A DNA stretch of 44,960 nt from Nitrospirota bacterium. GTDB lineage: Bacteria; Nitrospirota; JACRHJ01. The notes beneath the pieces were generated by a model. It was not told the origin of the DNA. It did not search any database and saw only the letters and a program-made list of their open reading frames with translations. The stretch lies in contig DAHWTK010000002.1 in the NCBI GenBank assembly GCA_027328825.1, positions 1-44,960 on the forward strand, in the 5' to 3' direction. The translations under genes were made by a program, and so were the position numbers. Every line of letters begins with the position of its first letter. Position 1 is the first letter of the stretch. Positions 3,694 through 36,694 of the stretch are shown here, piece after piece.

Positions 3694-3736
3694 AAACCTC
3701 TAAAGTCGCTGGGTTCCCGCTTTCGCGGGAATGACG
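3694..3736. repeat. Family-A palindromic repeat, intergenic (gpT stop / TMP start)
   Basis: aaacctctaaagtcgctgggTTCCCGCtttcGCGGGAAtgacg. Near-identical copies at 4476, 14026, 16885 and 17056. Confidence 0.9.
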
Positions 3737-3737
3737 A

Positions 3738-4475: not shown

Positions 4476-4521
4476 AAAAACCCCCTAAAGTCGCTGGATT
4501 CCCGCCTTCGCGGGAATGACG
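4476..4521. repeat. Family-A palindromic repeat, intergenic (major tail stop / gpG start)
   Basis: aaaaaccccctaaagtcgctggaTTCCCGCcttcGCGGGAAtgacg. Confidence 0.9.
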
Positions 4522-4522
4522 T

Positions 4523-5959
4523 TTACAAAAACCAGATTGCCAGGTCGTCGTTACCGGCGTTGTAATACGGGTCCGCGTCGATTGTCAGGACGCGCTCGCC
4601 GGATTTGTCCGTTATCTTCGGGATCTTGAACGTCGTCTGCGGAAGGACCAGAGCGCAGACGTAGCCCGCCTTCGGGTTGCCGTTCGCGTCCATGGCGTAG
4701 CTCGGGAGCATCACCGCTTCCGACGTTATCGTCAGAGCGTCCCCGAAGAGGAACAGATCGCTCTGCCGGAAAAAGACTTCAAGCTTCGGCTTCAGGTCCC
4801 TTTCGCCGGGCGTGGCGTAGGACAGGACGTAGTCCTGCGCTATTGCCTCGTCCTCGTGGAACACGACCTTATTGTCCATGTCCACCTGGCCGGAAAGGAC
4901 GTTCATGGCCGCCCCGTTCAGGACCATCGTCCCGCGATGGCCCATGACTACCGTCCCGGACTCTACGCCCGCCGGTATCCAGGGATATACGTCTATTCCG
5001 TTCGCCGCCGTCCAGGCCTGCGCGCCCGTGCCCCTCGTCACCGTAAGGTCCGTCAGGTACGGGTTCGTGGGGCCGGCCCCGGCGTTCAGGGCCTTCCCGG
5101 TGACGATAAGCTTCGTCTCCGTGCTCGTCCCGTCGGAGAGGTTGAAACGCGCGCCGACGTCGAATTTCCGGCCGTCCTGCACCGTTACGACCGTCGCCGC
5201 GCCTGACGCGACGTCCGCATAAAGCGTGTCCGTGCCGCACCTGATGACGCGCTGGAAACCGGAACCCATGGTGAGCTCTACGTCCTCTCCGGGCTTTTTT
5301 ACGACCGAGATTTTGTCCCACACCGTGCCGAGATAAACGAAGACCTCGTCGTAAAAATCCTGCCAGACCGAGTAAGACGGAAGCTCGTCGGCGAGTGTAT
5401 AACCCACGGCGGCGTAAATGTTCGCCGTGGCGACGGGCGCGGCGGAAAATGCGGGGGCGACCGTGACGACGTTCGTTACCGCGTCTATCGCCGTTATGAG
5501 AGCAAGCTCCTGGTGCGCCGGGTTTCCGATATCCACGAGCACCGGTTGCCCGACAGAGAAGTTCGCGGGAGTACCGGGAAGGAAAGTCGTCGTCGTCGGG
5601 GCGGGAGCGGCCTGGACGGTATCCGCGGCGCGCGCGATCTTGTTCCCCATGCCGCCGTTCAGAAGCCTATCCTGAGGCGGAGCAGTCCCGGCGGTCCCGG
5701 AGACATACATGTGCGTCTTGAGGCTCCCGGTGCCGTGCTTGAGCATCCCAAGGAGCATCTTGCGTTTGCTCCGGGTCGCATGCGCGGCCTTGTCCTTCTT
5801 CAGGTCCGGCTCCTGGTCCCAGTTAGACGGGTCTATCGGGATAACGAGGTCTGTATTCGCCGGCTCGGCAATAGCGCCGTAACTCGTCTCCGGCACGACA
5901 AAGAAACGCTCCTTTCTGGACAGAGCGATATTGCTTGCGTTATATCTTTTCAGCGTCAT
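4523..5959 (-). CDS. Major tail (tube) protein with extra central domain
   Basis: 478 aa, ATG with GAGGAG RBS, immediately upstream of the G/GT chaperones. N-terminus ..FFVVPETSYGAIAEP.. resembles tail-tube N-termini. Called mainly from synteny. Confidence 0.5.
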   Translation of the reverse strand: MTLKRYNASNIALSRKERFFVVPETSYGAIAEPANTDLVIPIDPSNWDQEPDLKKDKAAHATRSKRKMLLGMLKHGTGSLKTHMYVSGTAGTAPPQDRLLNGGMGNKIARAADTVQAAPAPTTTTFLPGTPANFSVGQPVLVDIGNPAHQELALITAIDAVTNVVTVAPAFSAAPVATANIYAAVGYTLADELPSYSVWQDFYDEVFVYLGTVWDKISVVKKPGEDVELTMGSGFQRVIRCGTDTLYADVASGAATVVTVQDGRKFDVGARFNLSDGTSTETKLIVTGKALNAGAGPTNPYLTDLTVTRGTGAQAWTAANGIDVYPWIPAGVESGTVVMGHRGTMVLNGAAMNVLSGQVDMDNKVVFHEDEAIAQDYVLSYATPGERDLKPKLEVFFRQSDLFLFGDALTITSEAVMLPSYAMDANGNPKAGYVCALVLPQTTFKIPKITDKSGERVLTIDADPYYNAGNDDLAIWFL

Positions 5960-6188
5960 CGATCTTCTCCTCTTCCGCCTGCGGCTGTGGCGCGGGCTCC
6001 GTTACGTGTTCCTTTCCCATCCCGTCGCCCTCCGGGAGAGGGGCTGGTATTCGGGTTACCGTCCAGTCTTTTTCGCCGTCGAACGACCTGGCGATTTCCT
6101 CGCTTACCAAAAACCGCGTCCCCTTGACGAATACCCCGACGCCGTCTATCCTGACCTCGCCGGGTCCCTCGTATTTCAGTATCGGCAT
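5940..6188 (-). CDS. Hypothetical small virion-module protein (carries a family-B repeat in frame)
   Basis: ATG 6188 with GAGGTGAGG RBS, 82 aa. Confidence 0.5.
   Translation of the reverse strand: MPILKYEGPGEVRIDGVGVFVKGTRFLVSEEIARSFDGEKDWTVTRIPAPLPEGDGMGKEHVTEPAPQPQAEEEKIDDAEKI
6021..6044. repeat. Family-B palindromic repeat, in frame in CDS 5940..6188 (..PAPLPEGDGMG..)
   Basis: cccgtcgCCCTCcgggaGAGGGgc hairpin. Confidence 0.85.
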
Positions 6189-7903: not shown

Positions 7904-8704
7904 TCAATTCAAGACGCTCGCGTCTATCCACAGATTAAACCTGAGCACGGTGTTTATCATGGTGCCGTTTCTGATTTCGACCTCTGCCAGATATTTGCCA
8001 ACACGCAAAGAGGTATCGCTCGTCGATAAATTAATCAGGCCGGCACCCGTAGAGGCGTCGGTAACCTGCGCGGTAATGTCGCGGGCAGGGATTGCATACT
8101 GTGAGCTGATATAATTGGATTTCGCCCCGAACCAGACGGTATAACCCGTGATGTCCTTATTTACCGAATACGGTATCGATGCAGAGTCCCCATACGTCAC
8201 GTGGACGTCGTTGCCCTGGGCGACCGTCTCATAGGAAGCCGCGCCCTGGAACGGCAGGATCGTAATCGCTCCTGCGCCCCACTGGCCCGCGCCGTGGACG
8301 CTCGAAAGGTAGCTATTTATCGAGGTGGAGTTGACGTAGACCTGCGGTTCGGCTTCCACGTCTATCGATTCCGTCTCGCTGTCCGCATACATCCCCGTCG
8401 TGTTCTCGTAGGCGGTATAATGCGCGGAACCCGCCGGGCACGTGAACGACCCGCCGTAGACGCCCGACTGGCCGTCCGCCGGGACCATCGTAGTCGCCGA
8501 GCGGAAGACGGTGCCGTCCTGCCGGATAATCGTGAGCTTCGGCTTTAGGCCAGTAACACCCGCGCCCGCCGATGTAATCTGCAACCGGAGCGGTACTACG
8601 TCCCCCGGCGCGGCGACAATCGCCCAGGCTGTCCCGGCTATCAGCAGAGCGAGCGCGGCAAAAACGCCTGTCATTCTGAGCGTAGTGAAAAATCCGCTTT
8701 TCAT
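7904..8704 (-). CDS. Exported beta-rich protein
   Basis: ATG at 8704 preferred over the track's TTG at 8719 (GGAGG 6 nt upstream). N-terminus MKSGFFTTLRMTGVFAALALLIAGTAWA, whose first 12 codons are encoded by a family-C repeat. Confidence 0.6.
   Translation of the reverse strand: MKSGFFTTLRMTGVFAALALLIAGTAWAIVAAPGDVVPLRLQITSAGAGVTGLKPKLTIIRQDGTVFRSATTMVPADGQSGVYGGSFTCPAGSAHYTAYENTTGMYADSETESIDVEAEPQVYVNSTSINSYLSSVHGAGQWGAGAITILPFQGAASYETVAQGNDVHVTYGDSASIPYSVNKDITGYTVWFGAKSNYISSQYAIPARDITAQVTDASTGAGLINLSTSDTSLRVGKYLAEVEIRNGTMINTVLRFNLWIDASVLN
8670..8704. repeat. Family-C repeat, supplies the start codon and N-terminus of CDS 7904..8704
   Basis: gtcattctgagcgtagtgaaaaatccgcttttcat. Compare 9570-9604 and 35808-35839. 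Confidence 0.9.
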
Positions 8705-8861: not shown

Positions 8862-9422
8862 TCATTTGTAAATACCCGTCGTGTTTAAATAGTTGAGGCC
8901 CGTATTATTTTCATAATGCGGGTTATGGCAATGCGGGCACTCGTATGCCTGCGACACCACCGGCGTCCCCCCCGACACCGCCGCGCCGGATTTAAACACG
9001 CTTATGGCCCCGGTCGTGAGGCTGTGCGAGGCAAGCGGTGCCGGGCCGTTGTAGACGCTCAATAATTTTGTCGATGTCAGCGTCATTTTCGGCGTCCCGA
9101 CGCCCGCGCTGTTGTGGCAGGACAGGCACGCGGAATCCATGTAGCGGACGTTCCCCAATATCCCCAAAACCCACCCGCGAGAGCTCCGATTGACGAACCG
9201 CGTCCTGTTGACGGTCGTATAATTCCGTATCAGCCCCCATACGCTTCCGCGCGCCGCATGGCACGCGCCGCAGTTGTTAGCGCCATACATGCTGGTATAG
9301 TTAGCGTGCGGCCCGGACACGGTTACGCCGTCCAGACGGTAGCTCGGCATGGCGGACGCGGCAACCACGGCCAGAAACAGCGTAACCGCCGCGAACGCGG
9401 ATATGGATACCGTGCGCCTCAA
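8862..9422 (-). CDS. Exported tri-haem c-type cytochrome
   Basis: Three CXXCH motifs (CGACH, CLSCH, CPHCH followed by NPH). Signal-like N-terminus MRRTVSISAFAAVTLFLAVVAASA. TTG start overlapping the upstream stop (TTGA), GGAGGG 8 nt upstream. Confidence 0.7.
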   Translation of the reverse strand: MRRTVSISAFAAVTLFLAVVAASAMPSYRLDGVTVSGPHANYTSMYGANNCGACHAARGSVWGLIRNYTTVNRTRFVNRSSRGWVLGILGNVRYMDSACLSCHNSAGVGTPKMTLTSTKLLSVYNGPAPLASHSLTTGAISVFKSGAAVSGGTPVVSQAYECPHCHNPHYENNTGLNYLNTTGIYK

Positions 9423-9604
9423 AGACTATGCCCTCCAAGCGGAGCAACGCTATAATCCCGGAGCGGGGCGGCAACCGCCGCCGACGCCCCGGAAACCGGC
9501 GCGGGAGACCCGTTCATATCGCCCATCCAGGCATACGCGCACCCGCCGAATACGGCGAGGAGCAGGAGTGTCATTCTGAGCGTAGCGAAGAATCTGCTTT
9601 GCAT
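9419..9604 (-). CDS. Small exported / lipoprotein-like protein
   Basis: MQSRFFATLRMTLLLLAVFGGCAYA.. The N-terminus is encoded by a family-C repeat. Start is ATG 9604 or TTG 9610. Confidence 0.4.
   Translation of the reverse strand: MQSRFFATLRMTLLLLAVFGGCAYAWMGDMNGSPAPVSGASAAVAAPLRDYSVAPLGGHSL
9570..9604. repeat. Family-C repeat, supplies the start codon and N-terminus of CDS 9419..9604
   Basis: gtcattctgagcgtagcgaagaatctgctttgcat. Confidence 0.9.
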
Positions 9605-14025: not shown

Positions 14026-14063
14026 TTAAAAAGTCTCTGGATTCCCGCTTTTGCGGGGACGAC
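14026..14063. repeat. Family-A palindromic repeat, intergenic (DUF2190-like stop / capsid start)
   Basis: ttaaaaagtctctggaTTCCCGCttttGCGGGGAcgac. Confidence 0.85.
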
Positions 14064-14067
14064 TAAA

Positions 14068-14525: not shown

Positions 14526-16019
14526 TTACTCCAGCCAGTCGTTTCCGGCGGCGGTTTCGAGCGATTTCGTGCCTTCGCCGGGACCCCCGGTGGTGCGCTT
14601 TTTGTCCTTCATCTCCTCGCCGGGGAGTTCGGCCTGGTCGGGGAACCTCTTCATGGCTTCCTCGGCCTGCACTTTTCCTTCCCTTCTGAGGTCGGCTATC
14701 GACCAGCCGCCGATGAAGGACTTGTAATTCTCAATGTCCTCCGGTCTGTCGCCGCATTTTCCCAGGAGCCGGGCGTTCTTGATGTAGTTGTCTATCAAGC
14801 CGTCCCGGTATGCCTTCCCGGCGGCGGCAAGGACCTTGATGTCCGCGACGGTCACGCCGTCCTTTATACCCAGGACTGCCTTCATGTCCTTCAGCTTCGT
14901 CTCGGTGGCCTCGTTAAGCACCACGAGGTCTTTATGCTTCGTCTCGGTCTCCTCGCGGCGCGCCTTCTCCGCCTCATAAAGTTCCTTGTATTCCATGTTT
15001 TCTCCTTCATCTTCAGGGTTGATGTGATTATGTGAACAACCGGCGCAGGCGGCCTTATCGACCGTAACCGCGCCAGGCTGGGCGCCAAGCCAGACAGACG
15101 AGGTCTCGTATGCCTCGCCGGGAGACTGCCACTCGTCATAAAGGGTATTCGACGGGTTCGACGGGTCTTTTACGGTCACCGGTCCCGAACCGCTAAACGA
15201 GAGCGATACGAAACGGTGGATGCCGCCGTCGATGTTCTTGCGCATGTCCTCGTTGGACGGCATTTTTATCGCGTACATATGCCCCTTCAGGACGGTCATC
15301 ATGCCCATACCCGGAGGGAGCTGAGGCCTTTCGCCTGTCATGGCCTCAAACTCATCCGGCGACATCATGGCCGTCTCTGCGTGGAACCAGGTCCCTTGCG
15401 CAGGCCCTTTCTGGCCGCCGTAACTCCCCGGATGGCCGCCGGAATTGTTAAAATAGCCCTTGCCGGGAAGCGTCCGGGCGAAATCCGAAAGAACGGACTC
15501 GTGAAACCGCTCGCCGTCCCGATCCACCGCGTTATGCGCCACCATAAAAGGAGCAACATAAACATCGTCAGGCGTGAGAGCGGCATGTGAAAAACGGTTT
15601 ATCTTCGACATCATCTCTGGTGTGGCCTCTACGCCCTCACCGAGTTTACGCGGGACGCCCTCGGCGTCCTTCCACTTATAAAGCGTGAGACCTTTAGTAT
15701 GCATTCCGGAAACCGACTTGCCGTCTATCAGATTCAGGAGCGTAGCTGCTGCGGACTCGATGACCGTCGCGCCTTCGGCTCCGGCGCGTTGCTTCGCGGC
15801 GATAACGCCAGAGCGGTAGACCCTCCCGCCTTTAACGATGGGATATTTCCACTCCTGCTCCGTTCCCTTCTTGGCCGGATCGTGGCCAAGAAAACAGTTT
15901 GGAGCGAGCTTTTTGCGCTCGTCGTTTGAGAGACTCCAGCCGGAATTCCTGTCCACTGAGCCACCAGCGATAAGCGTCCGGGCATGAGAGACGCCGGCGC
16001 TATTCAATTCAACCCCCAC
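14526..16019 (-). CDS. Prohead protease (HK97/S78-like) fused to a coiled-coil scaffold-like C-terminus
   Basis: ..AHNAVDRDGERF.., ..IDGGIHRFVSLSF.. and ..YETSSVWLGAQPGA.. resemble S78 protease blocks. C-terminal EYKELYEAEKARREETETKHKDL.. is coiled coil. GTG start with GGAG RBS. Confidence 0.6.
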   Translation of the reverse strand: MGVELNSAGVSHARTLIAGGSVDRNSGWSLSNDERKKLAPNCFLGHDPAKKGTEQEWKYPIVKGGRVYRSGVIAAKQRAGAEGATVIESAAATLLNLIDGKSVSGMHTKGLTLYKWKDAEGVPRKLGEGVEATPEMMSKINRFSHAALTPDDVYVAPFMVAHNAVDRDGERFHESVLSDFARTLPGKGYFNNSGGHPGSYGGQKGPAQGTWFHAETAMMSPDEFEAMTGERPQLPPGMGMMTVLKGHMYAIKMPSNEDMRKNIDGGIHRFVSLSFSGSGPVTVKDPSNPSNTLYDEWQSPGEAYETSSVWLGAQPGAVTVDKAACAGCSHNHINPEDEGENMEYKELYEAEKARREETETKHKDLVVLNEATETKLKDMKAVLGIKDGVTVADIKVLAAAGKAYRDGLIDNYIKNARLLGKCGDRPEDIENYKSFIGGWSIADLRREGKVQAEEAMKRFPDQAELPGEEMKDKKRTTGGPGEGTKSLETAAGNDWLE

Positions 16020-16284: not shown

Positions 16285-18585
16285 TTAAGTTAATTCGCTC
16301 TGAGCCAGATTGACCGAGCAGGTGCAGCGCGGGTGCGTGTCCTCCACGGGAACCGGGCAATCGTCGATGTCATAGTCGCCTTCGAGCGAGGCGCAGATCG
16401 AACAAGCGCCCGACGCCGGGGAAAAATGGACTCGCTTTATCTTTTCCGCCTTCCACTCGTCGCGCTTTCCCCGTTCCTGGGCGAGGCAGACCTCCGAGCG
16501 GACGAGCCGCTCCCAGTTCCCGTTCCATGCGCCGAACTGTTTCGCAAGGCCGGACGCAATCTCGCGCGGGTTCGCGCCCCGGAGCATACCAGTCTGGAGT
16601 GCGGGTTTTATCTCGTCCTGATAGAACCGTGTCGCGTCGTTCCTCACGAGGTCGAAGCCGTTATTCAAGAGCTTTTTGTAGACCTCCTCGTTGTGGAGGA
16701 GGTCGAGGACGGGAATCCCAACGCCGGACTCCTGCGCCGCCTGGAGGAAGCCAAGCGCGTGGGCCTGCCCGGTATAACTCGACACGGGGCCCTGTGTGGT
16801 CTGCGAGTCTGCGTTCATCTCGTCCGCGAACTGCCGTATGGCGTCCCGGACCTCCCGGAGGTCGGCGGCCGTGAACTCGAAACCCTTAAAAAGTCCCTGG
16901 GTTCCCGCTTTCGCGGGAATGACAAGATTAAGTATCCCGAAGACCTTCTCCTGAAGGCTTACCCAGAGAGCGGAAACGGAAGCGAGGCCCTGCTGGATAA
17001 TCGCCTCGGCCTGGGAGTCCTTGACCTTCGCCTCCTTGCAGACGTGATGCGTTTTGTCATTCCCGCGAAAGTGGGAATCCGGGGATTTAAAAGTCGCTGG
17101 GCCCCCGTTTTCACGGGGGTGACGGACGAACTTTACCGTCGTGAGTACCTTGCCGGTGGCGACATCCGTTTCCGTCTCGATCTCGGTATCGTTTTGGAGT
17201 TGCAGACTATTTGCGATCATCATGTCCGCCTGAGCGTTCAGGAACCGGGCCTGGGCCGCCTGTTGGATGTTATGCAGGTTCGGCGAGACAAGCGAGAGCA
17301 CGTAATCGCCTTTCTTCCATGTGCGGCCACGAGCGCGAAGCACATCGCGGGCGAGAAGATCGAGATGTGGAAGAATTACTGCTTTCCTTTGTTCGGCATC
17401 CTGCATCGCAAGGGCGGACTCCGGGTCGTCCACCGCACCCGCCTGACGGCCGGATGAGATGCCTGCCATCCACGGCTGAAGCCTTGCCTTGGCAAGTATC
17501 TGCTCGACGCATATCCTGTAGGACACCTCTTTTTGCGTGATAATTTTTCCGTCGCCGCCGATGACCTTTATGTCTAATACGCTGTCCTTGTCAAGGACGT
17601 TTATAAAGTCACCGGAAAGGCCATGCCGTTTTCTGTGCATCACCTCGTCGAAATCTTCACGTAAATCCTCGGCAAGTTTTTCCGCCTTTGTTTTGCCGTC
17701 GGCATCGGTGGAATCGAGATATTTTTCTGAACTCCGAAGCTGAACATTGTAGCTGGGGTCTCCGAACCGCTCGAAAATGTTCCGGTCCTGGTTAATTAGC
17801 GTTGCAAAAAGCTGCGCGACAAACTCCATCCCGGAAAGAAGGCTCTCGCCGTAAGGGTCCTGGTTGTTACCATGAAAGGAGAGGTACATCTTGTTCGTGA
17901 GATCGAGCGGGATTTCCATCGGCGCCCAGACGGGATAATATCCGAGCGACGACCATGTCCCGCTCAGGAGATGCGGATCTATAAGCTGGTGCGTACGATA
18001 CGTCGGGTCGTACAGGCCGAGCCGCGGCCAGGGCTTAGGCCGCATCGTCGCGTAGATATTGCCGAACTCGTCATTTTTAAAGAAAAGAAACTTGGAGTCG
18101 CCAATCCTAAGCTGCCGGATGTCTTTCCGGTCTTTCGTCCAGACCTTCTCGGCGAACGCGAAGCCCTGTTCGAATACCTCGTTCTGCCAATTATCGAGAA
18201 AGGCCTGTATGCCAACCTGAAAATCATTAACCTGCACAAAAGTGAAAAACTCGCGAAGCTCCTCCACAATTTTGTCGTTGCCGCCCGTGATTTGAAGTGT
18301 GCCGGTAAGACCTGCCAGAGTCCTGATTATCCCGCCGATAAGAGGTATCGCCTCGCGCATCACCTCGTAAAACTCAGGCGCGACCACGCGCGGGACATAA
18401 CCCTGGAACCACGTTGAGAACGGCCCCTGCGGTGCGGCCTGACGGAGCTGTGCGACGCTGACATTCGGTCTTGCGGGCGGCAAAGGCCACGTCGGGAACG
18501 CCGCCCGACCTGCGCCGGAACTTGCCCCGGACGGGTCTTTGGCATTCCGCAGGTCGAGCGCGTCTATAAGGGGATAACCGCTCAT
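16285..18585 (-). CDS. Portal protein fused to a MuF/SPP1-gp7-like head morphogenesis domain
   Basis: ATG 18585 overlaps the TerL stop (ATGA), with AAGGGGG RBS. The N-terminal ~480 aa are portal-like by size and position. The C-terminus ..VRSEV..FSPASGACSICASL..THPRCTCSV matches the MuF HPxCRC end. Confidence 0.7.
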   Translation of the reverse strand: MSGYPLIDALDLRNAKDPSGASSGAGRAAFPTWPLPPARPNVSVAQLRQAAPQGPFSTWFQGYVPRVVAPEFYEVMREAIPLIGGIIRTLAGLTGTLQITGGNDKIVEELREFFTFVQVNDFQVGIQAFLDNWQNEVFEQGFAFAEKVWTKDRKDIRQLRIGDSKFLFFKNDEFGNIYATMRPKPWPRLGLYDPTYRTHQLIDPHLLSGTWSSLGYYPVWAPMEIPLDLTNKMYLSFHGNNQDPYGESLLSGMEFVAQLFATLINQDRNIFERFGDPSYNVQLRSSEKYLDSTDADGKTKAEKLAEDLREDFDEVMHRKRHGLSGDFINVLDKDSVLDIKVIGGDGKIITQKEVSYRICVEQILAKARLQPWMAGISSGRQAGAVDDPESALAMQDAEQRKAVILPHLDLLARDVLRARGRTWKKGDYVLSLVSPNLHNIQQAAQARFLNAQADMMIANSLQLQNDTEIETETDVATGKVLTTVKFVRHPRENGGPATFKSPDSHFRGNDKTHHVCKEAKVKDSQAEAIIQQGLASVSALWVSLQEKVFGILNLVIPAKAGTQGLFKGFEFTAADLREVRDAIRQFADEMNADSQTTQGPVSSYTGQAHALGFLQAAQESGVGIPVLDLLHNEEVYKKLLNNGFDLVRNDATRFYQDEIKPALQTGMLRGANPREIASGLAKQFGAWNGNWERLVRSEVCLAQERGKRDEWKAEKIKRVHFSPASGACSICASLEGDYDIDDCPVPVEDTHPRCTCSVNLAQSELT
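16885..16923. repeat. Family-A repeat, in frame in portal/MuF linker (..VIPAKAGTQGLFKGF..)
   Basis: cttaaaaagtccctgggTTCCCGCtttcGCGGGAAtgac. Confidence 0.9.
17056..17123. repeat. Full-length family-A element (two hairpins), in frame in portal/MuF linker (..HPRENGGPATFKSPDSHFRGNDK..)
   Basis: gtcaTTCCCGCgaaagtGGGAAtccggggatttaaaagtcgctggGCCCCCGttttcaCGGGGGtgac. Confidence 0.9.
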
Positions 18586-20630
18586 ACGCGCCCCCTTATG
18601 TTGGCGCAAGATGCGAAAGCGCCGTGCGAAACCTCTTTCGTGCAGACGCGGGCGAGGATACGGAGCCGGTTCATGTCGATAAGGTGGTCGTTTTCCTTGC
18701 TGAAAATGCGGTGCTTGCCGCCGTTCCGTGCAGTGTGGTTCGGATACCAGAGCATGACATCCGGGTCGGGCGCGTACTCGCTTTCCAAGCTCTGCATCTT
18801 CTGGACGAGCAGGTCGGTCGCAAGCTCCTTATAGGTCTTTTTGATAGGCTTCCCGGTCTTGGCGTCCACGAGGGTCTCGCCATCCTCGTTTATCGCCTCG
18901 GTTACGCCCTCAAACTGGACGCCGAAAACGCGGTCTTCGTAATTCTTGCGCCCGTATTTTTCGCTGAAAAGGATATGCCCGACGGACGTCCCGGCGTTGC
19001 CGTAGTCGAGGCCCCAGGGCATCGTCCGTTTGGCGTTGTCGTAGAGGTCGTCCAGGGCGTCCAGGGCCTCCGCCTGCTGGTCGTATGTCACGTGCTCAAG
19101 GTGCAGCCTGGCGATCTCCCGCTCGCGCTTGCCGATAACCGTCGAGACGCCGATCTCGGTCGGGTCGTCCCAGTACCCGAAGTCCGCGCCGCCGTAATTC
19201 GCAAGCGGCGACGGGACGAAAAAGCTCTTGATGAGGCGCACAAACTCGGACTGGCTGCCTTCCGGCCTGGCGAAAAAGGCGTCTTTCGACGATGCCCGGG
19301 TAAGGATAATCTCCTCGTCGGGCGCGGGCATCCCGCCGTCCTGCGCCGGTTGATAGTTGTATGAATAGCCGGTGACGGAGACGTCGCCGTCCTCGGTAAC
19401 GATTACCTTGAGCGTCCGATACTCCGGGATGTCCCGCACGCAAGGCGCGAACTGGACGACCGGGAAAACGGTGTCCTCCGGGTCTCCGTGCTCGCCCAGG
19501 ACGTTATGGATGTACCCGCTTGAGTTCTCGCCGCCGTACTCCTTTATCGCCTTCTGTTTCCGGGCGTCGTCCCAGAACGGCGACGGCATGAGCGTCTTCG
19601 GCCAGTGGAACCGGACAAGCGAGAGGCCCAGGCGGTTGAAGTCGTCAAGCGAGGTTTTTGCGCCGTCGCCCTGTCCCCCGGAGGTAGAGAGGGACAGGGG
19701 CGGCGCGTCCGCTTCCGGAAAGGAGGTTACGGGAGTGGAATCGTTACCGCCCTCACCCGCTGCCCCTCTCCCGGAAGGAGAGGGGTTGAGGTCCGCGGTT
19801 TTGTTTTCGTAAAGAGGCGTCGTGACGCAGAGCCGGTAATATTCGGTCCCGCGGTCGCCGTCCGGGACGGAATAAAGGCGCGCGCGGCAACCGGGTTTAA
19901 GTGACCGCCAGAACTCCGTCCACGTCTTTTTGTTCTTGTCCTTCGCGCACTCGTCCTTTATCGCGAACGTTGTGGCATGAACACCGCGGTACGGGGCGCC
20001 GTCGAAGTCCGAGGGGCGGAAGTCCAGCCGGAAGCCATTCGAGAATAAAAACTGATGGTACGGCTGTTTCCTGTGCCGGACGAGAGTCTGAGCGAGAAGC
20101 GGGCTGGCGTTGAACTGTTCCTCGAAGGCGTCCACAATCTCCAGGAGATAAACCGAAAGCGGCGCGCCGATAAGGCCGGAGCCGCGCTTCGTCGTCTCGG
20201 CCTTCCAGAGGCTGTAGGCGATAATCTCACGCGTCTTGCCCACTTCCGCCCCGTCCTGGTGGATTATGTCGCCCTGGTAACGTATGGACGGCTTCTGGTA
20301 GTCGAAAAAGTTGTAAGGCTCCTCGAAGTCCGGGTCGGTCGGCTCCCGGAGGAACGACTGAGACCAGAGGACGGGGTCCTCGCAGATGCAGGCAAGCTGG
20401 AGCTCGCCCAGGTCCCTGAATCCGCCGGGCATCTCGCCGCGGGCGACCTGGTGCCAGGACCAGCCGAAACTTCGGAGGAAAGTATCGAAATGCTCCTCCG
20501 GCACCAGAACGGATTTTTGTAAATCCGAAAGATCGGAAAGAGGCGTTGCGATGTTGGCCCTGGCGTTCGCCGTAACGATGCCGATGCTCATGATTGCCGC
20601 CGTAAAAAGGAGGATGAGCGCACGCTTCAC
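18582..20630 (-). CDS. terL: Terminase large subunit
   Basis: 682 aa. Walker-A-like ..QDGAEVGKTREI.., Walker-B-like ..FAIKDECAK... GTG start overlapping the TerS stop (GTGA), GGGAGG RBS. Followed by the portal gene. Confidence 0.8.
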   Translation of the reverse strand: MKRALILLFTAAIMSIGIVTANARANIATPLSDLSDLQKSVLVPEEHFDTFLRSFGWSWHQVARGEMPGGFRDLGELQLACICEDPVLWSQSFLREPTDPDFEEPYNFFDYQKPSIRYQGDIIHQDGAEVGKTREIIAYSLWKAETTKRGSGLIGAPLSVYLLEIVDAFEEQFNASPLLAQTLVRHRKQPYHQFLFSNGFRLDFRPSDFDGAPYRGVHATTFAIKDECAKDKNKKTWTEFWRSLKPGCRARLYSVPDGDRGTEYYRLCVTTPLYENKTADLNPSPSGRGAAGEGGNDSTPVTSFPEADAPPLSLSTSGGQGDGAKTSLDDFNRLGLSLVRFHWPKTLMPSPFWDDARKQKAIKEYGGENSSGYIHNVLGEHGDPEDTVFPVVQFAPCVRDIPEYRTLKVIVTEDGDVSVTGYSYNYQPAQDGGMPAPDEEIILTRASSKDAFFARPEGSQSEFVRLIKSFFVPSPLANYGGADFGYWDDPTEIGVSTVIGKREREIARLHLEHVTYDQQAEALDALDDLYDNAKRTMPWGLDYGNAGTSVGHILFSEKYGRKNYEDRVFGVQFEGVTEAINEDGETLVDAKTGKPIKKTYKELATDLLVQKMQSLESEYAPDPDVMLWYPNHTARNGGKHRIFSKENDHLIDMNRLRILARVCTKEVSHGAFASCANIRGRV
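19667..19702. repeat. Family-B-like hairpin, in frame in TerL (..PPLSLSTSGGQGDG..)
   Basis: cgCCCTGTCCCccggaggtagagaGGGACAGGGgcg. Confidence 0.7.
19749..19791. repeat. Family-B palindromic repeat, in frame in TerL (..LNPSPSGRGAAGEGG..)
   Basis: gccctcacccgctgCCCCTCTCCcggaaGGAGAGGGGttgagg. Confidence 0.9.
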
Positions 20631-21442
20631 TTTGCCTCCCTTGCTCGCCTGGCCTTGTCAACGAGGCCGGAGAAGATGGAGGCTGCGGTCTCCGCCGCCT
20701 TTTCGTCCGTCTTGTTCTTGAGTACTTCGCGCTCCGTGAGGTTCCAGGCGGGCATCGTTATGCCGAACTCGGCCAGGAGGCGCGGGTAGACGTTCAGGAG
20801 CGGGTTCAGCTTCAGGGTCGTCCTTACGACTTTCCCGTTCTCGTCGAGTTCCTCCTCTTTCACCAGCGTGCCGTATTTCGCTATCTCCTCGCGCATCTGC
20901 CGGACTACGTCCTGGGCACCCGCCAGCTCGACGGCCATCATGTCCTTAATGCCTTCCGTGTCTCCGTCCAGGGCGGCGGAGAAGGCGTCCAGCATCTCTA
21001 TCAGGTGCGCGCGGTCAAGGCACTCGGCGCCGGGACGCGTGCCGCCCTCCTTTACCATCTCGCAGTCGGCGAACTGCGGGCAGGTGCTCTTACAGGGCTT
21101 GCCGAACTTCAAAAGAAAACTGGAGGCGTAGAGGCCGTACTTCACGGCGTTTTTGCGGGAGGACCGCTTGCCTTCGGCAGTCGTCGGGCCGGTCGAATTC
21201 TCGGCGGCGTTGCGGCGCTGTTCGAGGGCTTCCGGGGAAAGGGTGTACCGTCTGCGGGGGCGGAGCTTTTCGAGAGACGACGGGGCAGGGCGTGACGAAG
21301 ATTTCTCGTGGCGGTCGAGCTTTATCAGTTCGCCGGCGAGGTCGGTCTTGCCGTCAAGAATCTCTTGGCCGATCTTTCCCTTGTATGCCTTAAGGAGCTT
21401 CTCGGCGCTGACTCCCGAATCCGGCTTTTTGTCCTTGCCCAA
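20627..21442 (-). CDS. terS: Putative terminase small subunit
   Basis: 271 aa immediately upstream of, and coupled to, TerL. TTG start with GAGGG RBS. ..RKNAVKYGLYAS.. motif seen in small terminase-like proteins. Confidence 0.5.
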   Translation of the reverse strand: MGKDKKPDSGVSAEKLLKAYKGKIGQEILDGKTDLAGELIKLDRHEKSSSRPAPSSLEKLRPRRRYTLSPEALEQRRNAAENSTGPTTAEGKRSSRKNAVKYGLYASSFLLKFGKPCKSTCPQFADCEMVKEGGTRPGAECLDRAHLIEMLDAFSAALDGDTEGIKDMMAVELAGAQDVVRQMREEIAKYGTLVKEEELDENGKVVRTTLKLNPLLNVYPRLLAEFGITMPAWNLTEREVLKNKTDEKAAETAASIFSGLVDKARRAREAK

Positions 21443-21458: not shown

Positions 21459-21531
21459 TGGAGCGGGCGGAAGGAGTTGCACCTTCGCCTCCGGCCTGGT
21501 GGGACGGCGCTATACACTTAGCTACGCCCGC
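21459..21531 (-). ncRNA. tRNA-like element / degenerate tRNA ending in CCA
   Basis: The minus strand GCGGGCGTAGCTAAGTGTATAGCGCCGTCCCACCAGGCCGGAGGCGAAGGTGCAACTCCTTCCGCCCGCTCCA folds as follows:
- perfect 7-bp acceptor stem and U8
- 4-bp D stem
- 5-bp T stem with 7-nt loop
- 17-nt anticodon arm with one T:C mismatch
Atypical points: C33, no GG in the D loop, G55. Confidence 0.4.
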
Positions 21532-21675: not shown

Positions 21676-21680
21676 ATAAG

Positions 21681-21716
21681 CCCTCACCCCCGCCCCTCTC
21701 CCGGAGGGCGAGGGGT
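21681..21716. repeat. Family-B palindromic repeat, intergenic
   Basis: ccctcacccccgCCCCTCTCCcggaggGCGAGGGGt. Confidence 0.9.
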
Positions 21717-23205: not shown

Positions 23206-23955
23206 TTACCTCCTTCCAGGATAAAGTTCGTCAAGTCTTCCGCGGGCCAGCTTAAATATCATGCCCCCCGCGGCGGCGTTATTCACGATAGCGTATTTCT
23301 CCTTCACGTCGGCGAACAGAGCGAAGGCCGGGTCATATGTATTACGGGACAGAATGTAGTTCTCGTCACCGGAGAAAACCAACTCAATGTCCTTGTAAAG
23401 CGCCTTGAGCATCTCAGCATCCTCCGGGAAAAATGCGAGGACGATGACCTTAAAATCCGGACGGGCCTCGGCGATGGACGTGAACTCTAATTTCTCAAGC
23501 TCCTTCAGCGTCTCGCTGTCGAGGCCCGCGTAAAGTTTCTGGTCGATGTCCTCAAGCTCCTCCCAAAGCGACTTCAGGATAACCATGTCGTCCTTGCCGA
23601 CGATCGCGTTATGCGAAAGCTGGATCGCGATTTTTTCGCCCCGAGTCATGCTCCGATCTACATACATGACCAGTATCTCTTCAAGACCGGCGGCTCGCGC
23701 GGCCATGACACGATGATTCCCGGAAAGCACCGAGAATACTCCCCCATCGTTATAGCAAAGCGGAACAGATGTCAGGCCGCCGTCGCGCTTTATGTTGCTC
23801 ATGAGTTGGTCGAACGTAGTCTTGTCCATGTAGCGCGCGTTTTTGTCAGAAAGTTTCAGCCGGGAGGGATCCAAAAGTGCGAGCTTGTACGGCTGACCCT
23901 GGGCCTCCAAGAGAGCGTTCAGCGAGTCTAAGGCTTGCAGTGCTTTTTCTTCCAT
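23206..23955 (-). CDS. ParB-like nuclease-domain protein
   Basis: ..SVPLCYNDGGVFSVLSGNHRVMAARAAGL.. is the ParB N-terminal domain signature. GGAGGTG RBS. Confidence 0.7.
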   Translation of the reverse strand: MEEKALQALDSLNALLEAQGQPYKLALLDPSRLKLSDKNARYMDKTTFDQLMSNIKRDGGLTSVPLCYNDGGVFSVLSGNHRVMAARAAGLEEILVMYVDRSMTRGEKIAIQLSHNAIVGKDDMVILKSLWEELEDIDQKLYAGLDSETLKELEKLEFTSIAEARPDFKVIVLAFFPEDAEMLKALYKDIELVFSGDENYILSRNTYDPAFALFADVKEKYAIVNNAAAGGMIFKLARGRLDELYPGRR

Positions 23956-25286
23956 ATCGAAACCACCTCCTTGAAAGTCATATCGCTAAATTCACCCTGG
24001 TAATTCAGGAACGGTTTCTCCGCACCTTCAGGCGAGCGCTTGACGAGCTTATAGATTCCGCGATATTTCATGCTCTGTTTCGCGGGCGTGAAAGCGGTTG
24101 TGAGAATACACGTCAGACGCGAGAGGAGTTTCTCTTCCAGGACGCGGCGAGTATCCGCGCAAAGCGAAACCATCAGGAGAAGCTTCGCCAGGCGTCTCTC
24201 TTTCGGGGCCGGACGCACGAAATCCGACAGAAGATAAATCGATCCGACCTCGCCCTTTTTCTTGCTGTATGCCTGGAAAATAAGACAGCCGAGCACTTTC
24301 CCATCGACCATCGCCAGGTAGCAGGGACCTCCCGATCCAGGCTCGATGCTCTTGGCCAACCACATCGCCCGGTAATGGTCGATGATGTCCTGCGGGACCT
24401 CGCGGAGCCGGATGTCCGCGCCGTCCGGGATGTTTTCGTCCGGCGCCAGGATAGGGAGTTTCGGGTCGGTTTCCCGGAGTCTGCGGCGGATTATGCCCTT
24501 CGGGAACGGCAGGTTCGAGTAGATAAAGACGCTCTTCTTGCCGAAAAGGTCCATCCGGGCCACGCAAGGGAGCTCAGGGCGCTCCTTGTCGTCGTAGAGC
24601 ACGTAATCGCCCCGGGTCATGCGCCTTACCGTTTCTTCACGCCGTTCGGTCGTGAGCATTTCGTATTTCGGCTTGTCCCAGGCGATGGACTCCTCCAGGC
24701 GCTTGAAAAGCCGCTCGTAGCCGCCCTCATAGGTCGGCAGGAAGCCCACCCTCACCCCCTGCCCCTCTCCCGGAAGGCGAGGGGTCAAGGAAGTGTCGAA
24801 ATAATCATAAACGTCGATGGCGGTATATTCGGCGATTTTGATATGCTCCATCGCCTTCAGGACCTTCGAGAGCGTCTTTGCGAAAAGCTCGTTCCAGTGC
24901 GCCTGGTAATACTCCCACATCCGGACGGCGTAGACGCTGTTCTTCTTCTCGTATTTCAGCATCTCCATCATCAGGAGCAATGCGGCGACAGGGAAAGGTG
25001 ACGTGGCCAGATTTAGCGCGTTGTCAAGGTAAGGTTGAAGCCAGCGCAGTTCTTCGTTCACCACTTGCAGCTTCATTAAGCGGCCAACCAGCGCGTTTCC
25101 CAGGACACAGGAATACAGCGACACGTCGTTACTGTAGAGCCGGGCGTTCGGGGCGTGGCGGGTCAGGATCTGCTCGATGCTGAAGTTGCCGGAACAGCCG
25201 ATGTAACAGTCACGGCCGTCCAAAAGCTTCGCGTGTGTGGCGAAGAACTGCCGGAGCTTCGCGTTTATCGAACCGATGAAGGGCAT
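23928..25286 (-). CDS. Dam-like (D12-class-like) DNA methyltransferase candidate with unknown C-half
   Basis: N-terminus ..CYIGCSGNFSIE..LYSNDVSLYS.. resembles motif I plus the NDxN region of Dam-type enzymes. The DPPY motif is not clear (LPTYEGGY). Adjacent to the ParB-like gene. Confidence 0.35.
   Translation of the reverse strand: MPFIGSINAKLRQFFATHAKLLDGRDCYIGCSGNFSIEQILTRHAPNARLYSNDVSLYSCVLGNALVGRLMKLQVVNEELRWLQPYLDNALNLATSPFPVAALLLMMEMLKYEKKNSVYAVRMWEYYQAHWNELFAKTLSKVLKAMEHIKIAEYTAIDVYDYFDTSLTPRLPGEGQGVRVGFLPTYEGGYERLFKRLEESIAWDKPKYEMLTTERREETVRRMTRGDYVLYDDKERPELPCVARMDLFGKKSVFIYSNLPFPKGIIRRRLRETDPKLPILAPDENIPDGADIRLREVPQDIIDHYRAMWLAKSIEPGSGGPCYLAMVDGKVLGCLIFQAYSKKKGEVGSIYLLSDFVRPAPKERRLAKLLLMVSLCADTRRVLEEKLLSRLTCILTTAFTPAKQSMKYRGIYKLVKRSPEGAEKPFLNYQGEFSDMTFKEVVSIWKKKHCKP
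24748..24786. repeat. Family-B repeat, in frame in CDS 23928..25286 (..PRLPGEGQGVRVG..)
   Basis: caccctcaccccctgCCCCTCTCCcggaaGGCGAGGGGt. Confidence 0.9.
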
Positions 25287-25672
25287 TAATCCTCCTTTTC
25301 CGCGAGGGCGCGGTAGACAGCTGGGCGGGACATATTGTATTGGAGCGCGAGTTGGGCCGTATTCGCGCCATTAAACTCTTTCCGGATGCGGCGTCGCTTC
25401 TCGCGGCTCACGAGTGCCAGCGGGGACGGTATCCGCACGCGCGCGCCGACAAGCTTGCGGACGATCGCCTCCTCAATCTGGCGGCCAAGTTCGTTGCCGT
25501 AGACCTCGGAACAGGAGAGGCAGTGCCAGGGCAGGCCCTCCGCGGCCCCTCCCCTCGCGGGAGAGGGGCGCAGAAGGCAGGCGCGGCAGGCGCGGGCGCG
25601 GGCAACAACGCCCTGGACAACGTGCGCCCGGATGATTATGGCCATTTCTTCGACGCGGCGGCTAATCCGCAT
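25286..25672 (-). CDS. Mor-family transcriptional activator-like protein
   Basis: C-terminus ..SREKRRRIRKEFNGANTAQLALQYNMSRPAVYRAL.. matches the Mor/C-family HTH pattern (R..I...F.G.N...LA..Y.ls...iY.i). Start is uncertain (25645, 25672 or 25732). Confidence 0.6.
   Translation of the reverse strand: MRISRRVEEMAIIIRAHVVQGVVARARACRACLLRPSPARGGAAEGLPWHCLSCSEVYGNELGRQIEEAIVRKLVGARVRIPSPLALVSREKRRRIRKEFNGANTAQLALQYNMSRPAVYRALAEKED
25546..25570. repeat. Family-B repeat, in frame in the Mor-like CDS (..RPSPARGGAAEG..)
   Basis: CCCCTCCCCTCgcggGAGAGGGGcg. Confidence 0.8.
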
Positions 25673-28416: not shown

Positions 28417-28726
28417 ATATCGTTTTTTTGCTCCACTTCTCCACCCGAACTGCTAAACTCGCGTAACAATCTTTTTATTTTCAATAAGTTATTTCAGGTG
28501 GCGCAACTTTTATCAGTAACCACTTACAATTAGCCTTTTTAATCCAATTTCTTTTACTTTACAACGGGTTATCTATCGGGTGGAGCAACCCGACAACCCG
28601 TTTTGCTCCACCCTTAATCCACCCATCTCCACCCTTGCTCCACCCTTGCTCCACCCGACTTTTCCTTAATAAAAATAAATAGTTAAGCCATTTTGGGTGG
28701 AGAAGTGGAGCATTTTTAAACGATAT
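28417..28726. repeat. Iteron array bounded by ~30-bp inverted repeats: putative replication origin or recombinase target
   Basis: - Five tandem 10-11 bp units (ttGCTCCACCC, ttaaTCCACCC, atCTCCACCC, ttGCTCCACCC, ttGCTCCACCC) at 28603-28656.
- Single inverted copy at 28578-28587.
- Doublet tgctccacttctccaccc at 28429-28446, with its exact reverse complement at 28695-28712.
- AT-rich stretch at 28661-28694. Confidence 0.55.
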
Positions 28727-28786: not shown

Positions 28787-30910
28787 TTATACGCCATATA
28801 CCAACTCTTTCCTAAAACGGTAAACCGTCGTGCCGTTTACTACCCTGTTGTGCAGAGCGCCGTCCTGTTTCCCCAGTAGGAGCCACCCGCTCTTGAGCAG
28901 CGTCTCCCGGTCATTGCTGATGCGCCTGCCGAGCGTCGAAGGGCTTTCGTACGGGTTCCTGATGCCGTGTTCCCGGCAGTAACGGTTCAAGGCCTTGTGC
29001 AGGTCCGCCATCTTCGCGTCGAATTGGACGACCTTTACGGTTGCCTCCACGTCCGTGCCGTCCACCTTTACAGTCCGCTTCTCGCCGACCGAGCGGAACA
29101 GGTCTATCAGATAGGTTGGATGCCGGAAAAAGTGGCACTTCGACTCAAACCCTTTCACCTCGACCGGTTCGCGGTCCCGTTCCGCCGGGACGAGCCATCC
29201 GCCGCCGAGCTTTATCTCCTCAGGCACGAGCGTCTTTTCGCGCATCATCTCCTCGTATTCGAGGTACAGGCCGTCGAGGAAGTTCACGATGCTGTTGGAG
29301 CCGACGCTGATGTCGCCGGCCAGGGCATCCTGGCGTTTTATCCAGTGCTTTAAAATTTCGCCCGCGTCCTCGCCTTCGCCGTAATTGATATGCCCCTTGT
29401 CGAAGAACGGGATGACCTTCACGACCTCTTCGAGGATGAGAAGCCAGACGGTGATCACCTCGTTGGCGCGGTTTTTGTTGTGCTTCGGATACGCGCTCTC
29501 GATATGGTTCAACCATCGCCTGCGGCCTTCCTTGAGGTTCGGCAGGATCGCGTTCACCGCGAGGTCGAGCAGGCCGGACAATATAATGTCGCGCTTCTCA
29601 AGGAGCTCCTGGACGACGTCGAGCATCATAAAACCGCGCTTCTTGAACTTCTCATGGAAGAGCACGGTAAACGCGCCCGTCATAAGCTCGCTCAGAGACC
29701 CGGGAATCGGCTCGATGGCCGTCCAGAGCAGAAGCCCGCGGAGCGTCTGGTTGATCGTCTGGTTATCGGTGCCGCCTTTGCTGATATCGCGTCCGCGGCC
29801 GTCGCGCGCCATGAGAAGGATGTTCTTAAAGTTCCGGGTGAGGTCCGCAGACTCCATGTTGTCGATTACCAGGAGCGGCAGCCCGGAGAGCCTGAACGCC
29901 GCCGCCGCCGACATCTGCCCCACCTTCCCTTCACCGTACAGTAGCGCGAAGCACAGGTCGCCTGCGCTGGATTTGCCGCTCTGCGCGTCTCCCTCGAATT
30001 TCATGAAGCCCTTCGTGTTGCTGTAATCGGTGAAAAGATAGGATATGAGCCAGCATAATATCAGGTAGCGGTCGGTCAGCTCGCACGTAAGGTTGTCGAA
30101 GAGCAATGTCCGCAACAGTTCGAGCGCTTCGCGCGCCTTTGTTCCCTGTATAAAACGCGCGGGTTTAATTGCGGGACACGTATCGAGGAGAACGCCGTCC
30201 GGGTTCGTCGCGTTCGGGATTTCCTCCACCTTTTTGGGCGAGAGCTTCAAAATCGTGTTGTTTGGAGAGCTGAAATTGACGTATATGGAGTTTTTTTCCT
30301 TGTCGGTATGAATCCACGACAGAAGTTGTATCTGCGTCCCGTGGCCAGCGCAGAACGTCTCCAGCCAGTACCAGACGTTCTTCCCCGGCGCCTCGATGGC
30401 GGACAGGTGCGTCCGCCGGTCCATCATGGAGTTGAAGTGGTTATTGTTGCCAATCTCGTAGAGCGACTTGTTGTAAAAAAGGTAAGCCTTCCCGTCCTTG
30501 TTGTAGAAAAATTTCCCTTTCTCGTTAAACCACTTGTATATTTTTTCGCCCAGGGTGCGCGATTTGACGTTCTTCTCGCCCACGGCCTCGTAGTAGTCGG
30601 AGATAACCCTCAGCAGGTCGCCGTCGGTTTCCAGGGCCTCGTGGACGGCCTTCGGGGTGAGGCTTGTCAGCCTCACGATTTTATCTATAAAAAGCTCCTG
30701 CTCCAGGTCTCCGAGCGCGCCAACGGCCTTGTAGACGCCGTGCTCCTTCAGGTGCCCGTGCCGCGCCTCCAGGCCCTCCAGTTTCGCCGCCTGCATGACT
30801 TCCCATGTCAGGACGTCCACGGCCGCTCCCTGGAGCCGCTTAAACTCCCGGTGCCGGTCGCCGTTAACCCCCCGGAGATATTCGTCGATGTCTTTAATCA
30901 GTTCGGGCAT
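28787..30910 (-). CDS. P-loop NTPase, putative replicative helicase/initiator (SF3-like)
   Basis: 707 aa. Walker A ..FEGDAQSGKSSAG.., Walker B-like ..PLLVIDNMES... Sits next to the primase and the iterons. Confidence 0.45.
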   Translation of the reverse strand: MPELIKDIDEYLRGVNGDRHREFKRLQGAAVDVLTWEVMQAAKLEGLEARHGHLKEHGVYKAVGALGDLEQELFIDKIVRLTSLTPKAVHEALETDGDLLRVISDYYEAVGEKNVKSRTLGEKIYKWFNEKGKFFYNKDGKAYLFYNKSLYEIGNNNHFNSMMDRRTHLSAIEAPGKNVWYWLETFCAGHGTQIQLLSWIHTDKEKNSIYVNFSSPNNTILKLSPKKVEEIPNATNPDGVLLDTCPAIKPARFIQGTKAREALELLRTLLFDNLTCELTDRYLILCWLISYLFTDYSNTKGFMKFEGDAQSGKSSAGDLCFALLYGEGKVGQMSAAAAFRLSGLPLLVIDNMESADLTRNFKNILLMARDGRGRDISKGGTDNQTINQTLRGLLLWTAIEPIPGSLSELMTGAFTVLFHEKFKKRGFMMLDVVQELLEKRDIILSGLLDLAVNAILPNLKEGRRRWLNHIESAYPKHNKNRANEVITVWLLILEEVVKVIPFFDKGHINYGEGEDAGEILKHWIKRQDALAGDISVGSNSIVNFLDGLYLEYEEMMREKTLVPEEIKLGGGWLVPAERDREPVEVKGFESKCHFFRHPTYLIDLFRSVGEKRTVKVDGTDVEATVKVVQFDAKMADLHKALNRYCREHGIRNPYESPSTLGRRISNDRETLLKSGWLLLGKQDGALHNRVVNGTTVYRFRKELVYGV

Positions 30911-35807: not shown

Positions 35808-35839
35808 AAAAGCAGATTCTTCGCTTCGCTCAGAATGAC
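35808..35839. repeat. Family-C repeat, intergenic (opposite orientation to the other two)
   Basis: aaagcagattcttcgcttcgctcagaatgac. Confidence 0.85.
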
Positions 35840-36624: not shown

Positions 36625-36694
36625 AACTCCCTCCAAGTCACCTCGTAAATATCCGGGGCAGGGCGGCGAGGCATCCGCCTTTTCGGTTGCAAGC

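Follow-up and report, generated by a model that had tools for sequence, protein, structure and literature searches.

How an essential phage gene can carry short palindromic repeats inside its reading frame is the question raised by the portal-MuF gene of contig DAHWTK010000002.1 (GenBank assembly GCA_027328825.1, labelled as a Nitrospirota bacterium). The window analyzed is the whole 44,960-nt stretch of this contig. The first-pass annotation placed a 68-bp two-hairpin element at 17056-17123 and a half element at 16885-16923 within the portal-MuF open reading frame (ORF). Both are borne out by the sequence and by the ORF translation; the unit of the half element is itself at 16891-16923, i.e. 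the earlier coordinates were good to a few bases. The elements consist of repetitive extragenic palindromic (REP) units, and are located in two linkers of the encoded protein, termed V1 (site 1) and V2 (site 2). The window protein is designated P0001 in the alignments and in the numbering of the structural model. The gene and its inserts are as follows.

16285-18585, minus strand: portal-MuF fusion gene, 766 aa from an ATG at 18585; the frame is open to a TTG at 18609 (774 aa).
17056-17123, minus strand: REP dimer in linker V1; in gene sense, unit CGTCACCCCCGTGAAAACGGGGGCCCAGCGACTT (17091-17124), then an inverted unit (17056-17088); encodes RHPRENGGPATFKSPDSHFRGND, P0001 aa 488-510.
16891-16923, minus strand: single REP unit in linker V2, TGTCATTCCCGCGAAAGCGGGAACCCAGGGACTT; encodes VIPAKAGTQGL, P0001 aa 555-565.

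Both elements are read through in the minus-strand ORF at 16285-18609 and give the peptides ..RHPRENGGPATFKSPDSHFRGNDK.. and ..VIPAKAGTQGLFKGF.., which match the translations quoted in the earlier annotation. In the protein alignment the closest homologues, P0003, P0004 and P0005, have gaps opposite RHPRENGGPATFKSPDSHFRGNDK, and P0006 and P0007 display unrelated or remnant sequence at the site-1 position (P0003-P0007 have 68-73% identity to the window protein). The site-2 peptide VIPAKAGTQGLFK is without counterpart in the closest homologues. It had been allowed at the outset that the segments might be ordinary conserved portal/MuF protein sequence shared between homologous portals. The open reading frame is the only feature that favors this; the peptides are missing from the closest homologues, which have gaps at these columns, and the same DNA is found between genes in the window and in bacterial genomes. 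This leaves the explanation with virtually no likelihood.

At the DNA level, the closest relatives (about 70% identity) either lack both portal inserts or have kept one unit or a remnant at site 1. Site 1 is empty in L001, L003, L245 and L246. L002 has one intact unit there, CGTCATTCCCGCGAAAGCGGGAACCCAGCGACT, at the identical codon position and in the identical frame, and L244 displays an 8-mer remnant, CGTCATTC, which is the sole forward copy in its 22 kb. Site 2 is filled in the window alone and is empty in all six close relatives. By portal-gene DNA identity the window is an outgroup (about 70%) to three sub-clades whose mutual identity is 78-88%. These comparisons of aligned sequences confirm both portal segments as insertions relative to the homologues.

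The same comparisons bear on a possible artefact, i.e. a misjoin at shared short repeats, or separate portal and MuF genes with the repeats in a miscalled gap. Short repeats are able to cause metagenome misjoins, but on either side of each insert the sequence is colinear with the same relatives, at an unchanged level of identity, and L002, an independent assembly, has an in-frame unit at the same point. There are also 766 codons without a stop, and the fused architecture is present in about 90 homologues. An artefact is therefore very improbable.

The first-pass annotation described the insertion point as the exact junction of two domains that are usually separate proteins. The inserts do lie between the portal and MuF parts, but the fusion is the family-wide architecture. 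A homologue search with the portal-MuF protein gives 101 matches, about 90 of which span at least 92% of the query, with sizes of 666-960 aa; PF06074 (Mu-type portal) or PF04233 (Mu F) is present on some of them. Because so many homologues are near full length and some carry these domains, the fusion is taken as the normal architecture of a large family. The homologues come from metagenome-assembled genomes (MAGs) labelled Nitrospirota, Desulfobulbaceae, Deltaproteobacteria and Geoalkalibacter, and from Frateuria, Rudaea, Lysobacter and Dyella.

In the window protein itself, PHROGs detects a portal at aa 241-475 (phrog_30703, E 2e-26) and MuF/minor-head families at aa 584-766 (phrog_115 at aa 664-766, E 4e-16). 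A Pfam search of this protein and of the 497-aa ORF at 14526-16019 gave zero matches, and a PDB sequence search gave chance macro-domain matches only. An early AlphaFold2 model, built on 22 aligned sequences, was of insufficient quality by itself (predicted local distance difference test score, pLDDT, 55) and was rebuilt from 84 homologues with a mean pLDDT of 78. Foldseek matches the N-terminal part of the model to solved portals with probability 1.0, E 8e-9 and a template-modelling (TM) score, normalized to the target, of up to 0.62. The protein thus has a portal fold at its N-terminal end and a MuF/SPP1 gp7 domain at its C-terminal end in one chain, and is a member of the portal-MuF fusion family. 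In Mu and SPP1, the portal (Mu gp29, PF06074) and MuF (Mu F/SPP1 gp7, PF04233) are separate genes. The window protein is a full member of the same group by PHROGs, by Pfam domains on its homologues and by fold; it differs in that its family is fused, and this fusion is far older than the repeat inserts.

The single junction site is really two variable linkers on either side of a conserved helix. The blocks with the greatest spread of length across the 84 homologues include residues 461-520 (V1), residues 561-580 (V2), residues 181-220 and the N-terminus, whereas the block 521-560 between V1 and V2 is of constant length. In the AlphaFold2 model aa 467-519 have pLDDT below 50 and no secondary structure, and this span includes the dimer peptide at aa 488-510. 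The single-unit peptide, aa 555-565, is in a coil between helices 524-551 and 573-592 with pLDDT 67-74. The earlier expectation that the inserts would be found in loops is therefore in keeping with the model, which has the V1 insert in a predicted disordered linker and the V2 insert in a predicted inter-helix coil.

The anatomy of the unit accounts for the read-through. Five of the six frames of the unit contain no stop codon (VIPAKAGIQ, SFPRKRESS, HSRESGNPA, KSLDSRFRGND and SRWIPAFAGM), and any insertion that keeps the downstream frame therefore gets translated. A degenerate 25-mer, GGNTTCCCGCNTTCGCGGGAATGAC, with up to 3 mismatches has 5 matches in the window versus 0.00 expected in 100 shuffles: 3711-3735, 4496-4520, 14039-14063 and 16899-16923 on the plus strand and 17056-17080 on the minus strand. 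A sixth, variant unit is at 17091-17123. The repeat finder likewise groups 3694, 4479, 14022, 16882 and 17082 as one family (family A), with 17056 paired as an inverted copy. The 68 nt at 17056-17123, GTCATTCCCGCGAAAGTGGGAATCCGGGGATTTAAAAGTCGCTGGGCCCCCGTTTTCACGGGGGTGAC, are two inverted units, and the window letters at 16891-16923, AAGTCCCTGGGTTCCCGCTTTCGCGGGAATGAC, are one unit. The three further copies that the first-pass annotation listed between genes (3694, 4476 and 14026) were also found:

3703-3736, minus strand: intergenic REP unit, 2 nt past the TAA stop codon of the gene lying upstream of the tape-measure gene.
4488-4521, minus strand: intergenic REP unit, 1 nt past the stop of a 478-aa tail gene.
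14031-14064, minus strand: intergenic REP unit, variant GTCGTCCCCGCAAAAGCGGGAAT, between a cement-like gene and the major capsid gene.

All three begin 1-4 nt past stop codons, between same-strand genes. Their sites are also empty in relatives. At 3703-3736 the relatives have an overlapping stop/start (TAATG), whereas the window has about 50 extra bases before the tape-measure gene; the 4488-4521 site is empty in L002, L003, L244 and L245, and the 14031-14064 site in five relatives. No target-site duplication was established, and the possible TA duplication at 4521 is not distinguishable from chance. The stretches 3694-3740 and 4479-4525 display 89% identity over 47 nt, which reaches beyond the REP unit into a TAGRGG..TTT stretch that supplies the Shine-Dalgarno sequence of the next gene past both units. 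One of these copies may have been duplicated from the other along with its ribosome-binding site.

Each unit has a tag, a stem, a loop and a tail. The tag is CGTC in four of six window units (at 3736, 4521, 17124 and, as a GTCGTC variant, 14061-14064) and TGTC in the other two (16924 and 17055); the units in L002 and L243 carry CGTC. The stem is 8 bp, ATTCCCGC/GCGGGAAT, and a variant stem in one unit, ACCCCCGT/ACGGGGGT, keeps only the first A-T pair. The loop is 4 nt (GAAA, GAAG or AAAA) and is followed after the stem by CCAG or CCCAG in every unit. An Rfam scan found zero families for the repeat units; its matches are a tRNA and an int-alpA RNA only.

These properties correspond to the CGTC-tagged REPs, which have a stem of 8-9 bp starting with A-T pairs, a loop of 4-5 nt and a CCA tail (PMC3733652, Di Nocera et al. 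2013). CGTC REPs occur as singletons and dimers and are mostly intergenic and near the 3′ ends of upstream ORFs; some are intragenic, are read through and encode 10-30 aa, with 20-30 aa given for intragenic REPs of cellular genes (PMC3733652). The 4-base loop places the unit in family CGTC-1, which is equated with Neisseria dRS3 and with the Rickettsia conorii palindromic element RPE-6 (PMC3733652). By sequence features, the family-A unit is a CGTC-1 REP: the tag, the 8-bp stem that starts with A-T pairs, the 4-nt loop, the CCA tail and the occurrence as singletons and inverted dimers are common to both. Copy number and position agree as well, given the three units just past stop codons and the host MAG loci that are rich in units. 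There are differences from the published CGTC-1 set. The carrier here is a phage (the word "phage" is absent from PMC3733652) and the targets are virion and packaging genes; in addition, two of six window units have TGTC, and Nitrospirota and Omnitrophota are outside the phyla listed in that paper. This is a new setting, with new examples, for a known kind of element and not a new mechanism.

Palindromic elements of Rickettsia (RPEs) were reportedly described by Ogata and co-workers in 2000. The likeness to them that the first-pass annotation pointed out is closer than it stated, as the unit fits the family that includes RPE-6; RPE-6 and RPE-4 are both assigned to the CGTC class (PMC3733652), and the link rests on this published assignment, not on an alignment of RPE sequences. 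Intragenic REPs and RPEs are an established phenomenon (PMC3733652; PMC10969869). RPEs are in-frame palindromic inserts in several unrelated, mostly essential genes that are kept intact, as in portal-MuF (two sites) and in four other genes of the window, and in both cases the protein fold is predicted to accommodate the inserts. RPE-1, however, is about 100-150 bp and specific to Rickettsia, whereas the window units are 33 nt (68 nt in the dimer) and are shared across phyla. A literature search by repeat DNA and peptide strings, and for REPs or for miniature transposable elements with inverted repeats (MITEs) in phage genes, returned no account of such a case. In comparison with a MITE (terminal inverted repeats of 15-30 bp, a target-site duplication and a length of 70-300 bp), the arms of the window dimer are inverted, but its length is 68 nt, and singletons of 33 nt make up most of the copies.

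The dimer also recalls REPINs, pairs of inverted REPs moved by a cognate REP-associated tyrosine transposase (RAYT). Bertels and Rainey (2011; PMC3116915) describe two inverted REPs with a short spacer, and singletons that resemble decayed dimers. The 17056-17123 dimer and the host dimers have this two-REP, long-hairpin form. The window units could then be REPINs moved by a host RAYT (an IS200/IS605-type tyrosine transposase), a possibility consistent with the dimer as two inverted units and a spacer that can form one long hairpin (cf. PMC3116915 and PMC3337134). The tag, however, is CGTC or TGTC and there is no GTAG head; CGTC REPs never flank RAYT genes and are without an associated transposase (PMC3733652). 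No unit-flanked transposase-like ORF, and hence no cognate RAYT, was recognized in 1.16 Mb of host loci, a test of limited power since the sample is small and biased and translations were read by eye with no domain search. REPINs are moreover described as vertically inherited chromosomal residents, not phage passengers, in the REPIN-RAYT literature (e.g. PMC3116915). Movement by a RAYT is on balance a doubtful proposition.

The units are abundant in bacterial chromosomes. A scan for the exact 33-mer in contigs from one genome per species gave at least 118 stretches, and those listed include Lysobacter, Dyella, Luteimonas, Rudaea and Pseudoxanthomonas (Xanthomonadales), Burkholderiales, Nitrospirota and Omnitrophota. 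The usual arrangement in host genomes is a unit, a variable spacer of 10-40 nt and an inverted unit, and there are heterodimers of one ATTCCCGC unit and one CCCCCG unit, which is the make-up of the window dimer. The rarer variant, CTGGRCCCCCGTTTTCACGGGGGTGAC or CCCCCGTTTTCACGGGGG, which is present in the window dimer, matched a total of 42 stretches, and Nitrospirae/Nitrospirota MAGs account for about 24 of these, the majority. Host MAG loci carry 1-3.5 units per 10 kb, in a sample picked for having at least one unit. An Omnitrophota MAG locus (L017, 34-1011) displays an in-frame dimer inside a host ORF. Sampled loci of one Nitrospirota MAG (JACRHJ01) also hold the two other repeat families of the window, B and C, and among named portal homologues the closest belong to Nitrospirota MAGs. 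A repeat count in the presumed hosts had been proposed as a way to a host link, and taken together the distribution of the rare variant, families B and C in JACRHJ01 and the nearest portal homologues point to Nitrospirota; the host of the phage is probably a Nitrospirota bacterium.

Insertion in the window is wider than the family-A copies first listed, as repeats of three families are present and in-frame inserts occur in four more genes. There are 16 units of the three families in the window, 3.6 per 10 kb, compared with 1 unit in 117 kb in the six close relatives. The other inserts and units are:

19677-19826, minus strand: 50-aa in-frame insertion in the terminase-like ORF 18582-20630, with a family-B hairpin at 19750-19785 (CCCCTCTCCCGGAAGGAGAGGGG) and a second hairpin at about 19660-19700.
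24749-24784, minus strand: family-B unit that the Dam-like methylase/GNAT ORF (23928-25286) reads through, TPRLPGEGQGVR.
32184-32221, minus strand: family-B unit that the DnaG-like primase ORF (31444-32502) reads through, PHPNPSPGGRRD; it follows the zinc ribbon directly.
36211-36246, minus strand: family-B unit that the tyrosine integrase ORF (35908-36783) reads through, PPLPEGEGKEG.
6012-6047, 21680-21715 and 25546-25569: intergenic family-B units.
9570-9597 (GTCATTCTGAGCGTAGCGAAGAATCTGC), 8670-8697 and 35812-35839: family-C units.

The 50-aa insertion is absent from three aligned relatives of 609-622 aa. ORF 18582-20630 is termed terminase-like by gene position only, as Pfam and PHROGs give no match. 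For the methylase, the primase and the integrase, the grounds for the term insertion are the match to the repeat and the continuity of the Pfam domains, not a comparison with empty sites. The methylase ORF displays PF22555 (aa 3-273) and PF22559, the primase Zn_ribbon_DnaG (aa 3-91) and Toprim (aa 273-350), and the integrase Phage_integrase at aa 96-280, i.e. 185 residues versus 148 profile positions.

Several neighboring features were also seen. A tRNA-Gly gene with anticodon ACC is at 21459-21531 (minus strand), just upstream of the gene 20627-21442 and close to the family-B unit at 21680-21715. An Rfam int-alpA RNA motif at 36640-36705 (minus strand, 43.9 bits, above the gathering score) is located at the 5′ end of the integrase ORF, and the true start of the integrase may therefore be downstream of the listed TTG. 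Iteron-like short repeats, both direct and inverted (TTGCTCCACCC..), cluster at 28429-28712, just upstream of the 707-aa ORF 28787-30910; the cluster may be a replication origin. Diverged long direct repeats (73-196 nt, 60-75% identity) at 43-1022 and 1301-2037 lie within left-end ORFs that include the tape-measure gene; these are internal protein repeats and are unrelated to the palindromic families. The related phages or prophages L001, L244, L245, L246 and L003 display defence-type cargo beside the packaging module, in the flanks of the terminase genes: type I restriction-modification subunits, Abi_C, a cyclase with PycTM, a HEPN/nucleotidyltransferase and an MmeI-type methylase.

The same linkers are occupied in distant members of the family. 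Portal-MuF homologues at 35-51% identity have repeat-derived peptides in V1 and/or V2. P0034 has VIPAKAGIQ in both linkers; the two units present in its DNA (L242) belong to a local variant, ATTCCTGC/GCAGGAAT. P0017, from a prophage remnant in a 5.6-Mb genome (L243), has a unit in V2 with 27 nt splitting its loop; another unit of L243, at 9104-9137, is inside the adjoining 653-aa ORF in the terminase-like gene position. P0060 has a dimer in V1, and P0008 a family-B peptide in V1. The copies in these four homologues are independent. Beyond the family, a 27-mer of the unit is present in 78 IMG/VR stretches, with one convincing further in-frame case, a primase/helicase in L194 (176-3244, minus strand, ..VLDSRFRGND..). 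Other repeat-spanning ORFs in these stretches were set aside, as they are mostly spurious high-GC frames.

We consider it quite likely that the portal inserts are host REPs which entered a temperate phage as passengers and were tolerated there. Small, non-autonomous CGTC-1 REPs would have been copied from the host pool, probably that of a Nitrospirota bacterium, into an integrase-bearing and presumably temperate phage; this would have happened during residence of the phage in the host, within a wider colonization of the phage genome. Copies that keep the frame in V1 and V2 would be harmless to the protein and would have survived for this reason, with selection filtering to frame-preserving positions. 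The encoded peptides (RHPRENGGPA.., KSPDSHFRGND and VIPAKAGTQ) would then be putative passenger sequence and not functional motifs.

Some observations weigh against this explanation. No mobilizing enzyme was identified in the material examined, and transposition is therefore inferred from distribution only. Of the units in the window, L002, L242 and L243, 13 of 14 are in the sense orientation relative to their genes (two-sided binomial p about 0.002 by our own arithmetic, for units that are not fully independent), a bias which neutral, orientation-blind insertion does not predict. Three branches have an occupied V1 site: the window, L002 and, as a remnant, L244. The window and L002 units at V1 differ by three compensatory stem pairs and one terminal base, i.e. 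all of the stem differences are compensatory. Together, the occupation of V1 in three branches and these stem differences could be the result of selection on the hairpin.

REPs in enterobacterial operons stabilize or process mRNA. The hairpins in the window could be kept for a comparable RNA function, or for one in single-stranded DNA, the intergenic copies stabilizing or processing the polycistronic mRNA and the intragenic copies pausing ribosomes or modulating expression at the portal/MuF boundary. Besides the compensatory stems, the sense units place a GNRA-type GAAA loop in the mRNA, the intergenic units follow closely on stop codons, and the stems are near perfect. Folding z-scores are -1.9 to -2.75 for single units. 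The dimer folds as one hairpin, at -43.5 kcal/mol (z -5.1) on the plus strand, which is antisense, and -28.2 kcal/mol (z -2.3) in the sense strand; the antisense fold is better (17050-17130) because of G-U pairs between the two unit variants. However, the six close relatives function with zero or one unit, and both position and orientation are generic properties of CGTC REPs in cellular genomes. Other repeat families fill the same linkers in other lineages, and the units are not terminator-like in a consensus scan. The CCCCC variant is a pre-existing host subfamily, and a different donor copy explains the seemingly compensatory pattern. A retained hairpin function is accordingly thought unlikely. 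An intrinsic terminator was also considered and rejected: none was flagged in the scan, and the U-run is about 9 nt after the stem. Compensatory evolution of the CCCCC stem in situ was rejected as the main account, since a host subfamily has exactly this variant; a fresh copy from the host pool, or gene conversion where a unit was already in place, is simpler.

A broader form of the selection argument is that phages of REP-rich hosts repeatedly recruit or renew REPs after stop codons and in V1 and V2, with the hairpin itself under selection. This is considered unlikely. If it were correct, the three-branch occupancy of V1, the compensatory stems and the 13:1 sense bias would be its footprint. 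A role as an RNA stability element, a translation-pausing element or a host-like DNA motif would be possible, and REP turnover would regularly supply essential virion proteins with new coding sequence for their linkers.

There are practical consequences. The presence of VIPAKAGIQ, RHSRESGNP, DSRFRGND or PSPxGRG in phage proteins should warn annotators of repeat-derived sequence. V1 and V2 of portal-MuF fusions appear to be insertion-tolerant sites that may be useful for tag engineering. Which repeat subfamilies a phage contig carries may serve as a signal for host assignment, in this case toward Nitrospirota, a phylum with few characterized phages. More generally, selfish repeats of the REP type, known in cellular proteins of Rickettsia and some other bacteria, also colonize phage genomes. 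There they can be translated as part of essential packaging and virion proteins, and they turn up repeatedly in the same flexible linkers of distant phage lineages.

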